Of a DNA stretch of 64,000 nt, positions 3,001 through 9,000 are shown in pieces (position 1 is the stretch's first letter; each line of letters begins with the position of its first letter). The stretch is from a virus (Duplodnaviria > Heunggongvirae > Uroviricota > Caudoviricetes), in IMG/VR virus record IMGVR_UViG_2537562172_000006. The stretch is one strand, 5' to 3'. The position numbers were made by a program.

Positions 3001-6000
3001 GCGGCATCCTGTGTGGCAGATGATGCCAGCTGTGCCACCTGCTTTTTATCTTCGGCAACGGATTCTGCATTCTGCTGTACGTTATCCGCCAGCGTCTCGC
3101 AGTCGCTCTTAATTTGTTGCGCATCAGCGACATGTTGCCCGGCCTGTCGTTCGCTTTCCGCTGCCGCTTCCGCGCTCTGCTGCGCCTGCGCCACCATTTC
3201 CTCAAAGCGTTTCACCACGTCGGGTTTGAGGTCGCCTTCATCAAGGGCAGTCAGAAAGTCGTTCAGCGTGCCGGGCCTGGAGTCGTCGTATACGGCAATG
3301 TCGCCAACACAGTACTCGTCGCGCCAGTCCTGTTTCAGATATACGCAGTATTTTCCGGTCTGCGCCTTAAAACAGTACTCGCCACAGTTTCCTGTCACCA
3401 CATCAGCAACTGTGCGCATCACCACTTCTGAGGTGTTTACCCGGGATTTCAGAATTATGTGGCATCCGGACATGGGGATGCCTGCGCCATCAATCAGCGC
3501 ACCTGATATCACTACAGACATAGTTTTTCTCGCAATAAATTAAATCAGGAAGAGGCTTCCGGAGAGACGGGCCATTCAATGGCGTTATATGAGCTTTTAT
3601 CAGCGATGGTGCTGAAATCCATCGCCTGCAGCGATTTCGCGTATATACGGTACGCTTTCAGTTTTTCCCTGTCTTCGTCGCTGATTAATCCCAGCAGCAG
3701 GTCTTTTTCCCATTCGCTGGTCATGATGCTGGCCCGTTGTAACAGGGCATCGCGCTCATCTTCCGCTTTAAGTTTGTAGTCGAAGACAAATTTATCGTCG
3801 CGGTAAAACCAGTAACCAGGCACGGTAATACGGCGGTTAGCGGTAATATCAGGAACTTCAATAACACTAGCGTTACGGGGTTCAATACCTGTCACATCCT
3901 TACCGACCCACACCACGCGCCCGTCTCCGGTGTAAACCATTTTTATGGTGTCACTGGCAAAATTTTTCAGCTCTTCATACCAGTTTCTGTCATCCTCCGA
4001 AAAAAGCCAGGTGATACCATGTTGTTTTGTCATCTGATATTGTTCTGCGGTTTTCGGATTGCCTGCAGTAATATTTTTTAAATGCAACATTGTTAAACAC
4101 TCGCCACGTTATACCAGGTGCCGTTAATCAGTTTCTGAAGCGGTCGGTAATACACGCCGCCGATGTTATCTGCCGAATTACTTCCGGTTTCCTGCACATT
4201 AATACCGGATAACCCGTGGCCTGAAGGTGAGCGAAATGTCCAGGATACTTGGTTACCTCCCGGGTTGTAATACATTTCGGAACCATAACGCACATCCTGC
4301 ACGCCGCCATTTCGCTGCTGATAACGGGCATCGAAATTTCCATAGTTTGATGGGGTCATCTGTCCGTTTACAGCGAATCTGATACTGCCATCGGTATTTC
4401 TCTGGCTGTAAAAATGCCAGCCGGAATCATCACCAAGCTCTGCAACTACAGGTCGGGATGAATTACCCCATAAATTAAACGTTGCGTTTTTCGTGGAGTT
4501 GTTGGCGCTGGATAACGTGAATTTTTTAGCATTTCCGGCCTGAATATTTTTTAACGCTATCGCCACACCATTCTGGAAACGAAATACATGCTGTCCATTC
4601 GCATAAACATCCAGAATGCCGTCGCCGTTTTGTTTTATACCTGTATCGTTATCCCCGAAAGCAATTGAGTTTCCGCCCAGCGCGTTCTGAACGCCGATAC
4701 CCAGCGCACCATTGACCTGAGAACCGCCGCCAACAGACACTTTATGCGACATGGATATTTCACCCGTCCGCAGATTAATAGTGAACGGTCGAAGTGGACC
4801 AATATCGCCATTCTCGCCCTGACCTTCACTGGTAGGGATAAGGTGCAGGCACTCTTCCGAACGACGAAAAATCAGACCAAAGGCTTCGTTGAAAATCCTC
4901 AGCGCATTAACACCACGGATTTTCAGTTCCCCGGTCATCAAATCACCAGATTTTTTTACATATCGCAGATCAAAATCTGAATAGATATTGCCGGGGTTTA
5001 TCACGCTGAAATAGCTTTTCTCGCTATCAAGAAGGCAAATCAAAGGAATACCCTTAATGATATCGTTCGCTACCAGCTCGGACTTGTTCCCCTTATAAAG
5101 CGGGAACGTACCAAGAACCTTTCCGCCCAGTGTTAATTGAAGTGTCGCGGCATTGGTATTGTTCTGAACGGGGAAAACGATAATCGGGGTTCGTAGCGTC
5201 CAGTCTGTACCTCCATTAACAAAAAACGTCGCGGGAAGCTCCAGAGTCAGCGCGTTTGCAGTGCCGCCAGCAACTCCCGCAATATAATGACCACTCTGAA
5301 GCTGCGCTATCTGTACGAAATGGTTTTCCGAACCACGCGTGGCAAAGTTAGCCACAACGTCATTAAGGGACCAACCTTTCGCGGTTGTTCCTTCCTGCCC
5401 ACGAATGACTTTCAACACATCACCGCTTACCGATACCAGGTGACAAATCTCAAATGCAGACTCTTTATTATCGGTAAGCGTAATTTTTGCATAGACACGT
5501 TGCCCGTTCGATTTATTTTCAAAATCGGCAGAAAGCAATTTTGCAAATTTAGCCCCTGTACCGGGCATTACCGGAATATCAGTCTGAATCTTGGTGATGC
5601 TGCCAACTTACTGATTTAGTGTATGATGGTGTTTTTGAGGTGCTCCAGTGGCTTCTGTTTCTATCAGCTGTCCCTCCTGTTCAGCTACTGACGGGGTGGT
5701 GCGTAACGGCAAAAGCACCGCCGGACATCAGCGCTATCTCTGCTCTCACTGCCGTAAAACATGGCAACTACAGTTCACTTACGCCGCCTCTCAGCCCGGT
5801 ACGCACCAGAAAATCATTGATATGGCCATGAATGGCGTCGGATGTCGCGCCAGTGCACGCATTATTGGCGTTGGCCTCAACACGATTTTCCGCCACTTAA
5901 AAAACTCAGGCCGCAGTCGGTAACCTCGCGCATACAACCGGGCAGTGATGTGATTGTCTGCGCTGAAATGGACGAACAGTGGGGCTACGTCGGTGCTAAA

Positions 6001-9000
6001 TCACGTCAGCGCTGGCTGTTTTACGCGTATGACAGGATGCGGAGGACGGTTGTGGCGCACGTCTTCGGTGAACGCACTCTGGCCACACTGGAGCGTCTTC
6101 TGAGCCTGCTGTCGGCCTTTGAGGTCGTGGTATGGATGACGGATGGCTGGCCGCTGTATGAATCACGCCTGAAGGGAAAGCTGCACGTTATCAGCAAGCG
6201 TTATACTCAGCGCATTGAGCGGCATAACCTGAATCTGAGACAACATCTGGCAAGGCTGGGACGGAAGTCACTGTCGTTCTCAAAATCGGTGGAGCTGCAT
6301 GACAAGGTCATCGGGCATTATCTGAACATAAAACACTATCAGTAAGTTGGAGTCATTACCTGAATCTTGGTGATATCACCAGCCAGTGCTGAAACAACGT
6401 TATTGCCAAATCCAAGAATCATTTTTGAATCACCGTTGTTGCATAGGAATAAATAAAAGGGAGTTTTACATATTTCTGGTCAATGGCATCTTTCAGAAAA
6501 TAGCCTATACCATCGCCATACTCTGGTATCTGAATAGAAAAAACGCTGTCCGATACTGTCACACTCACATCAAAAGTGTGCTGCAACGGCGGGTCTATTC
6601 CGTTTTTTCCATGAATGAACCGCGCCACACGTCGCTTTAACCAGTCAATGCAGAAATGCGAACCGTCAGCCTTATAAAAATTCCACGTTAATATTCGTTT
6701 GAAATAATCATCAGGTACATACGATGCCTGCCCCGGAACATAATTCCGCATTGCCGCATAAGGGATTGTATTGTATTCAATGGTATCGTATGCGCCGCGT
6801 GCAATAGCCTCCTCGGAAACCTGTAGTAAAGGCCTTTCAACGCCATAAATCCCGAGTGCAATCCAGTCCAGCAATTGCCCGGTTATTGATTCCGATGTCC
6901 AGCATGGCAATGCCAGATTGTTGAGTGAATCGAGGTATTCCTGAGCAATTTCATTGTATGCATCAAAGAACGCAACAACATTCGGATCATCTCTGTACTG
7001 CACAAATGGATAAGCAGGGAGAATTTTCTCAGTCAGATATTGCATACTTGTTGACCTGAACCTGTGATGCCACCGTTGAAAAATAGGAATAGGTATCGCC
7101 ATAAACCAGGCTTGTGTCTTTCGCCGGAAGAACAATATGGCCGTTAATACCAATGCTCACACTGATTGTTGAGATCAACGTCGCATCAACCAGCAACCTG
7201 ACGGAACTGGTAAAAATATCCTGGATACGCAGAAGATTTATCGGGTGTCCGACTTCAATTGAATTGATGTAATCAGCAACGTTTTGCTGCACAGCCATAG
7301 CAATACCCGCCGGATCAACATAATCATCAGACACCGTGTTCCAGGTGATTAGCACCATGACGTTTTGTGATGACGGGATAACGAACGGCACCTGATAAAC
7401 GTCCGGTGAAACGGTTATTGAAACCGTGCGTTTTTCCACTGCCGCACCGGATGGATTGCTAACATCGTTGGTCAGTTTCGAAATATCCGGTACAGATTTG
7501 TAAATCGCATAAGCCACATCATACGGATCACCGCCACCAACAACCGCAACCCATTTCCCCAGCGACGACTGCCGGAAAGAAATCAGGTTTTCTCGCACAC
7601 CGCTTACTGATTTGAGCATCGCTTTAAAGCAATCCGGTGTTCCCTGCACACCAAACATGCCGGACTCCATAACTTCGGCGCGATATGATGCCCATGTCTG
7701 CGCCTCCTGACCGGGCATACCTGCGGTAAGGTTCGTGCATTTTACAGGCTGGTCTTTGGGTACTGATGTAATGACCTGCGTTACAGTCCCTTCCGGTACA
7801 GCCCATGAGCCTGACGTTGTGGCCACACAGTAGACTGGCTCAGTCTGCCCGCTTTCCGGTACCACCGTATCGCGGGAAACCGCATACTGGTAGTTACCAT
7901 CTCCAACCACAAATCCTTTAGGGATACCAAACCCCGGCAACGCCTCAAACACCACGTATACCGCCGTATTTGTACTTAATCCCTTCTGTGCTCCATAAAT
8001 GTTTCCGAGTTGCATCAGTAACGGAATATTTGCGCCGTATGGGCTTACGGAGTTAATAAGGTCCACCCGCGCCTGGTCTATTAATGCCAACGCCCCGACT
8101 GCCGTGCTGGCAAGGTCTGTAATAAGTCCCGCCGGAAGGTTGGCTGTATATCCAGGTACTTTTTCAGCAACTCTGGTGATAAGATTCGCGAGCAAATCAT
8201 TGGGTGGCGTAGGCTGCGCACCCGCACTGGTCATAGTAATTGGTATTTCTGACATAGTTAATCTCAAGGATAAGTTATGAAGAAATTAATTTCATTGCTA
8301 ATTGCATCCACTCTTTCATTTTCAGTATGCGCTCAAGAAGAAGACAATTATCATACCCGTCTAATAAGAGCTGCCTGCAACGATGCCATGCATAAATTAC
8401 AGCTTCAATATGGTCGGCGTTTTATATGCCATACTGATAATTTTACTGCCGGAAATATGAATGCCGCATACTTATCTGATTCTGTTTATGGGAAATCGGG
8501 AATAATGTTAATGAAATTCGGTAATGTTTATTATGATAATCCCAGCCATCCAACCCATGACACATTACATTATTCCTACAATATACAAGACATGAATACG
8601 GCCATTTCTTTAATTGTCAATGGGGGCGGTTTAAACGATCAGCAAATAAATTATCAAATTTGTAAAAAAGCCATTACAGATACCAAGGAAAAAATAAAGA
8701 AAAACAATAAAGATTATCTAGACAAAAAGATAGATCATAAAACTTATGAGATAATGAATTCAGTTTTCAATGACTCGATAAAAAATTTTGAAAAATGTGT
8801 AGCTGAAAATAAATAGTTGTTGGACTTTACAACCGCGCCCAATTGAGTATGATTGGGCGAATGAGGCGTCGAAACCTCTTTCACGCGGCCTAGACCAACC
8901 CCGTCAGTGTTGGATTTTTTATGCCTACAATTCAGTGATGGCACAATGTGCGGTCACATCCTCGATCAATGTCGGGAGGGCGACGAATACAACACCCGAA

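Follow-up and report, generated by a model that had tools for sequence, protein, structure and literature searches.

A simple IS1 insertion in the post-baseplate fibre gene of a contractile-tailed Rac-family prophage

The stretch of DNA analysed here, a 64,000-nucleotide tailed-phage sequence (IMG/VR record IMGVR_UViG_2537562172_000006; hereafter the window), carries near its left end a tail-fibre gene, read on the minus strand directly after the baseplate genes, that is split by a copy of the insertion sequence (IS) IS1. The element occupies 5593..6360 on the plus strand, separating a short 5' stub of the fibre gene from a long remainder that ends at 4093. Beyond the remainder lie a gene for a fibre assembly protein and a second fibre gene. 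The window corresponds to bases 3..64002 of contig AFEA01000010.1 of the draft assembly GCA_000225225.2, an identity that was checked over the first 11.5 kb.

The element is a complete IS1 of exactly 768 bp. Its left terminal inverted repeat (IRL; 5593..5615, plus strand) reads GGTGATGCTGCCAACTTACTGAT, and its right repeat (IRR; 6338..6360, minus strand), given as the reverse complement of the last 23 bases, reads GGTAATGACTCCAACTTACTGAT; the two are imperfect repeats that match at 19 of 23 positions. The insA ORF (open reading frame; 5648..5923, plus strand) is intact, starts with GTG and encodes 91 residues with matches to the Pfam families Zn_ribbon_InsA (3e-21) and HTH_Tnp_IS1 (4e-28), while the insB' frame (5842..6345, plus strand), open to 6345, matches DDE_Tnp_IS1 (1e-74). 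The A6C motif for -1 frameshifting, AAAAAAC, lies at 5899-5905 on the plus strand, at IS position 307. A length of about 768 bp, terminal inverted repeats, insA and insB' with their A6C site, a short target duplication and near identity to known copies all place the element in the IS1 family. Copies bearing the annotation 'IS1 family transposase' in several E. coli genomes, most of them from porcine isolates, match it at 100% identity; the identity is 96.4% with an element that is annotated as IS1F and about 93% with the IS1 of phage P1. Because just 152 of about 9,600 matching records reach at least 99% identity, it is, judged by these matches, a minority IS1 variant. The 64-kb window holds one IS1 left end only, that at 5593. 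A simple consensus scan predicts a promoter-like site at 5600..5627 (plus strand), overlapping IRL, in the region that we take to hold the insA promoter.

Identical copies of an octamer, TGAATCTT, flank the element at 5585-5592 and 6361-6368, and IS-free alleles hold this octamer once; in strain 401651, which provides the best match to the empty site, the single copy appears as TGAATCGT. A first-pass annotation of this DNA had described a 768-bp IS1 with an 8-bp target duplication, inserted after codon 20 of the fibre gene following the baseplate genes and leaving a 491-residue remainder. That structural description is borne out, its placement being close enough: the break follows nucleotide 62 of the gene, that is, two nucleotides into codon 21. 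A 9-bp duplication was considered and rejected, as it would need a 767-bp IS1 without its terminal C, and 8 bp is the parsimonious solution. When IS1 and one copy of the repeat are excised in silico, the two parts of the gene join in frame into a 1,554-nt ORF whose 517-residue product is identical at 510 of 517 positions to the uninterrupted fibre of E. coli W (WP_000600270.1).

As the gene now stands, its 5' stub (6339..6422, minus strand) encodes 27 residues, with 21 native codons, supplied by 6422..6361 plus one IS1 base, followed by six codons read from IS1 and a stop. The ATG of the stub (6422..6420) and the TGA of the 208-residue gene before it share the sequence ATGA, a 4-nt overlap between the two genes. 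The remainder (4093..5592, minus strand) comprises codons 19-517, 499 codons counting the duplicated bases, and its longest start-to-stop ORF, at 4093..5568, begins at Met27 of the intact protein and yields the 491 residues. An IS1-mediated deletion or rearrangement was also considered and was rejected, since the flanks are exactly adjacent in IS-free alleles. Because the duplication is perfect and the flanks are colinear, the event is, as read from the assembled window, a simple IS1 transposition with no adjacent deletion. The reconstructed empty site differs from the best-matching IS-free allele at a single codon, that of residue 19 (6366-6368 and 5590-5592), which is Lys (AAG) in both copies of the duplication and Thr in 18 of 18 other alleles examined. 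Its presence in both copies indicates that this change predates the insertion.

Might the junctions instead be chimeric, with IS1 placed by a mis-joining of contigs at a repeat? The sequence comes from a draft assembly, related strains have multiple copies of IS1, and a chimera had been named at the outset as the finding that would overturn the description. The data speak clearly against it. Contigs assembled from two other read sets (SRR12769932 and SRR10947474) start 28 bp inside IRL and run into the fibre remainder with zero mismatches, and 89 complete E. coli genomes contain the empty site, reconstructed as a 322-bp sequence, without a break and with both flanks adjacent (best match 99.7%); the uninterrupted allele that the first-pass annotation had proposed to look for in related strains was thus found by sequence search. 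Taken with the perfect 8-bp duplication, the independent junction contigs and the colinear flanks lead us to exclude a chimeric join, to which we would assign next to no probability. The insertion itself was absent from all 5,426 of the 5,426 complete E. coli genomes searched; it is restricted to a narrow lineage and recent. A search for the right-hand junction in other assemblies by way of the gpI-like and baseplate J proteins did not recover it and returned only long IS-free loci, these proteins being too widespread to serve as probes (4,518 and 1,147 index blocks, respectively).

What kind of fibre has been interrupted? The fibre protein matches PHROG tail-fibre families (E-values down to 1e-121). 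Its C-terminus matches the tail fiber protein S of phage Mu (5yvq, 1e-13) over residues 419-516, with a weaker stretch at residues 236-333, and no match to Mu S (5yvq) was found in the N-terminal ~230 residues. A comparison with 12 other alleles, all accompanied by the same baseplate genes, shows next to no variation in residues 1-275 and, within residues 1-26, none outside position 19, while the stretch 300-517 is mosaic; strain P13-6 has, on a P2-like prophage, a fibre with only residues 230-517 in common. Residues 4-158 align with residues 5-144 of the virion-structure chain 8jov_1 (7e-5). The PDB entry 8jov is cited here just as a deposited 'putative tail fiber protein' of 18 chains, a literature search by its code having returned nothing relevant. 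Judged by these alignments, the protein follows the usual pattern, with an N-terminal anchor specific to the tail and a receptor-binding end that can be exchanged. The conservation of the N-terminus, together with the exchangeability of the C-terminal end, supports the earlier view of the N-terminus as the end by which the fibre is attached to the baseplate. The stub of 20 residues was at the same time taken for the attachment segment as such, and this part of the view does not stand, the conserved region measuring ~275 residues and lying mostly on the remainder. The anchor would thus extend over ~275 residues rather than 20, and residues 1-26 may contribute to docking.

The neighbouring genes fit such a fibre. 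Directly upstream, a 208-residue protein in the position of P2 gpI or Mu gp48 is encoded at 6419..7045 (minus strand; phrog_8212, 3e-119), preceded by a 408-residue wedge protein of the Baseplate J/gp47 family at 7029..8255 (minus strand; Pfam Baseplate_J, 9e-8; phrog_6 baseplate wedge, 1.5e-38). Directly downstream, the Tail fibre assembly protein (Tfa) of the disrupted fibre, 181 residues long, is encoded intact at 3545..4090 (minus strand; Pfam Caudo_TAP, 3e-23; phrog_136, 9e-60) and shares 178 of 181 residues with its E. coli W counterpart. With the baseplate J and gpI-like genes directly before it and a Caudo_TAP chaperone after it, the disrupted gene is, on gene order, the positional counterpart of Mu S or P2 H. 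The same order recurs in 19 of 20 related loci, where baseplate J, the 208-residue gene, an uninterrupted fibre gene (447-517 residues, with the 4-nt overlap) and a Caudo_TAP chaperone of 176-182 residues follow one another, and a Stf-type fibre with PF08400 comes next in all ten related loci long enough to show it. Two fibres arranged in this way are therefore the norm in this family.

In the window this second fibre, of the lambda Stf/StfR type, is an intact ORF of 1044 residues (387..3521, minus strand). Pfam phage_tail_N (PF08400, 1e-61) is matched over positions 1-134 of 134 and Phage_fiber_2 (PF03406) at 1e-15, and the protein differs from WP_001384004.1 by one residue. It is followed by the DUF4376 chaperone gene of Stf, of which the 5' part, 124 codons, lies at 1..372 (minus strand); this open frame aligns with 190-residue proteins of ETEC1716 and E. 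coli W and is cut by the start of the window, the contig itself beginning 2 nt earlier. Tfa and the Stf-like fibre had both been reported intact, which is correct for the two ORFs; the Stf system as a whole cannot be called fully intact, because the DUF4376 gene runs off the contig start. The block of Stf and DUF4376 (window 1..3600) is also present, 99.8% identical, on the P2-like prophage near trp/ompW in strain P13-6 (locus L003, 6784..10520) and is therefore common to unrelated tail types; this sharing may explain the break in the assembly. On the other side of the fibre region, the baseplate genes are split by an opposite-strand cargo block (8277..9638, plus strand), which encodes an AntA antirepressor and a 179-residue protein of no known function, and the same slot in related prophages holds an HSDR_N protein, ProQ, a YafO toxin or an LprI-family protein.

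The host element is, from its gene content, a full-length Rac-family prophage with a contractile tail. IntR (48396..49631) adjoins ttcA, and the prophage is flanked by ttcA, dbpA and zntB; integration on the ttcA side, the IntR-type integrase, ydaQ, ralR, recE/recT and racC place it in the Rac family. Compared with the proteins of Rac-SA53, IntR is 99.8% identical, the products of ydaQ, ydaC, ralR and racC are 100% identical, and RecE, which is present here with RecT, is 95% identical. The prophage carries terminase, portal and head genes, together with a sheath, a tape-measure protein with a transglycosylase domain, a baseplate hub and baseplate J, and a Q-type antiterminator gene lies at 32367..32909.

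Several further observations concern this wider region. A 478-residue protein that scores as a portal (23690..25126, minus strand; phrog_146, 1e-73) is listed by RefSeq for ETEC1716 (locus L022, 7045..8001) as 'anti-CBASS protein Acb1 family protein', which looks like an annotation oddity. Where Stx phages have their toxin genes, between the Q antiterminator and the holins, lie a gene for a pertussis-toxin-S1-like ADP-ribosyltransferase A subunit (31254..31979, minus strand; PF02917, 4e-15; 66% identical to eplA of Rac-SA53) and, beside it, a B-subunit-like gene (30761..31243, minus strand), the pair spanning 30761..31979. In the chromosomal part beyond ttcA, paralogues of rac43, rac55 and rac56 (58400..61000, minus strand; 54-78% identity) point to a second prophage or to what is left of one.

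IS1 is not the only lesion among the late genes. The 342-residue putative major head gene, assigned to phrog_6671 and weakly matching a major-head family, has TAT at 19986-19988 (minus strand) where Rac-SA53, E. coli W and ETEC1716 have the stop codon TAA; the surrounding sequence is otherwise the same, save for two further small differences in Rac-SA53. Loss of the stop creates a 518-residue in-frame fusion ORF (19458..21014) with the next gene (phrog_6737), reading through a terminator-like hairpin, where the three other prophages have two separate genes. The exact fusion protein is recorded on six contigs only. Because the putative head protein is thereby fused to its neighbour, the formation of particles by this prophage appears doubtful. 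The other late genes align at full length with those of Rac-SA53.

Expression of the fibre remainder would require signals of its own. A hybrid outward promoter at IRL was considered and rejected: the consensus scan returned no minus-strand promoter-like site at the left end of IS1 or the fibre junction, the sole minus-strand site lying at 4597..4570, and the total number of sites was below shuffle expectation. At Met27 the duplex energy with the anti-Shine-Dalgarno sequence is -3.0 kcal/mol, compared with a background median of -2.8, while TTG37 has a Shine-Dalgarno (SD) score of -5.7. The native starts of the fibre and Tfa genes have equally weak SD sequences, but they sit at the preceding stop, in the ATGA overlap in the first case and 2 nt after the fibre stop in the second. 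The nearest minus-strand ORF upstream of Met27 ends 39 nt before it.

We propose the following model for the consequences of the insertion. With an intact IS1 transposed into codon 21 of the fibre gene directly following the baseplate genes, translation coupled to the upstream gene would yield just the 27-residue stub. For the remaining 499 codons there would be neither a promoter, nor a ribosome-binding site stronger than background, nor an upstream ORF to couple to, and the fibre allele would be a null. Whichever way it is oriented, an inserted IS1 exerts polarity by way of Rho-dependent termination, an effect that antitermination of the lambda type is able to overcome. Late transcription in this prophage would have to cross IS1 antisense; since IS1 is polar in either orientation, expression of Tfa, Stf and the Stf chaperone may be lowered as well, unless polymerase antiterminated by Q passes through the element. 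In principle, the fibre ORF could be restored exactly if IS1 were precisely excised across the 8-bp repeat. We therefore favour, with a probability of about 0.88, a simple IS1 insertion in the fibre gene of a Rac prophage, giving a null allele in the course of ordinary recent prophage decay; by the predicted signals, the insertion most probably abolishes this fibre.

Some points weigh on the other side. The right-hand junction is documented in this assembly only, although its copy of the duplication matches the left one. Because IS1 is multi-copy and the assembly is a draft, the interior of the element may be a consensus of several copies, and 'intact transposase' holds strictly for the assembled sequence. 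Since the native starts of the operon also have weak SD sequences, weakness of the SD does not by itself disqualify a start, and low-level initiation at Met27 or TTG37 may occur, the signals scored here being predicted ones.

The first-pass annotation had offered two outcomes, particles lacking one fibre type or a truncated fibre made from an internal start. The latter, in which a protein begun at Met27 or TTG37 would be incorporated into the tail, has some structural appeal: the 491-codon ORF stays open and keeps residues 27-275 of the conserved N-terminal region with the whole receptor-binding end, and TTG37 has the better SD score. Yet the junction has no predicted minus-strand promoter-like site, and Met27 has an SD at background and lacks the stop/start coupling of the native genes. 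The near-complete invariance of residues 1-26 in the other alleles suggests that they are needed, and the alignment to 8jov_1 begins as early as residue 4. We thus find this outcome unsupported and quite improbable. Particles that still assemble without the post-baseplate fibre, keeping the Stf-type fibre and having a changed or narrowed host range, are somewhat easier to envisage. Stf has an intact ORF that hardly differs from the alleles of other strains, the late genes other than the two lesions are full length, and Q-dependent antitermination could override the polarity of the IS. That the loss of one fibre type can be tolerated is illustrated by lambda, in which a stf frameshift still allows plaques and a knock-down of stf/tfa is without effect (PMC10695390). 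Against such particles stand the putative major head gene without its stop, the Stf chaperone gene cut by the contig end, and a possible lowering of Stf expression by IS1 polarity; moreover, adsorption by Stf alone in a contractile-tail phage, and a docking place for Stf, are conjectural. Particles of this kind are one possible outcome among others, less likely than supposed given the head-gene lesion, and on balance we consider them unlikely. We would give still less credence, and least among the outcomes weighed here for the virion, to a natural reversible knock-out, in which induced particles would carry the Stf-type fibre only and the host range would switch back through rare events of precise excision at the 8-bp repeat.

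It is more readily conceivable that the prophage is defective in other ways and that IS1 is a neutral hit in a decaying element, with no phenotype of its own. The change from TAA to TAT, with its 518-residue fusion, would fit this, as would the recurrence of IS hits in this gene, an IS10 being present in the homologous fibre gene of CP115173.1. However, a capsid protein extended at its C-terminus need not be lethal, every other late gene is full length, and either of the two lesions may have come first. We regard a hit without any effect of its own as a tentative proposition, worth keeping in mind and short of probable.

How does this insertion compare with known systems? In the classical IS1 polar mutations of the gal and lac operons of E. 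coli, as here, a member of this element family has disrupted a gene by simple insertion, leaving a short direct duplication, and polarity on the downstream genes of the operon is expected in both situations. The present case differs in that its target is a late-operon gene of a prophage and its duplication measures 8 bp, 9 bp being more usual; we presume that late transcription is Q-antiterminated here and may partly escape the polarity. An 8-bp duplication is annotated as well for an IS1-family element of Rac-SA53, which is located in the early region of that prophage. A literature search for IS1 insertions in tail-fibre genes returned only unrelated IS1 hits in capsule loci. We consider the event a textbook case of insertional mutation by IS1, here in a late gene of a prophage, of a known kind and with no new mechanism.

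Among phages, a close parallel for the loss of a fibre is laboratory lambda PaPa, which lacks side tail fibres through the stf frameshift and for which Stf and Tfa are dispensable for plaques (PMC10695390). In both cases one of two adhesion devices is lost by a simple mutation, and the fibre that survives here has the N-terminal domain of lambda Stf (PF08400); the difference is that the Stf-type fibre is the survivor, the lost one being the fibre encoded directly after the contractile-tail baseplate genes. With the Mu S/U (gp49/gp50) and P2 H/G pairs, the disrupted gene shares its place after baseplate J and the gpI-like gene, the C-terminal homology to Mu S and the Caudo_TAP chaperone directly next to it. 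It departs from them in its N-terminal ~230 residues, which lack similarity to Mu S, in that no invertible segment was noted, and in the second, Stf-type fibre that follows. The prophages Rac-SA53 (KU052037) and those of E. coli W and ETEC1716 share with it the integration site (ttcA-uspF), the integrase, RecET and Q, the genes for head and contractile tail, and the arrangement with two fibres; unlike the present prophage, their fibre gene is uninterrupted. An independent disruption of the homologous gene in the same prophage family is found in E. coli CP115173.1 (locus L029, 5551..6227), where an IS10, recognised by its outside end CTGATGAATCCCCTAATGATTTTGG... and a 402-residue transposase, interrupts the fibre gene after nucleotide 1217, near the receptor-binding end, whereas IS1 lies at the 5' end.

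For the annotation of this prophage, the 491-residue ORF and the 27-codon stub are better described as one IS1-disrupted pseudogene, and normal virion production should not be assumed. The allele could serve as a natural knock-out to learn which of its two fibres a Rac-family phage needs, a use limited by the second suspicious lesion in the same prophage, the lost head-gene stop. Should induction release particles that carry the Stf-type fibre only, this would show the post-baseplate fibre to be dispensable in Rac-family contractile-tail phages. Beyond annotation the matter is a small one, and the locus stands as a tidy example of lineage-specific prophage decay by IS1.

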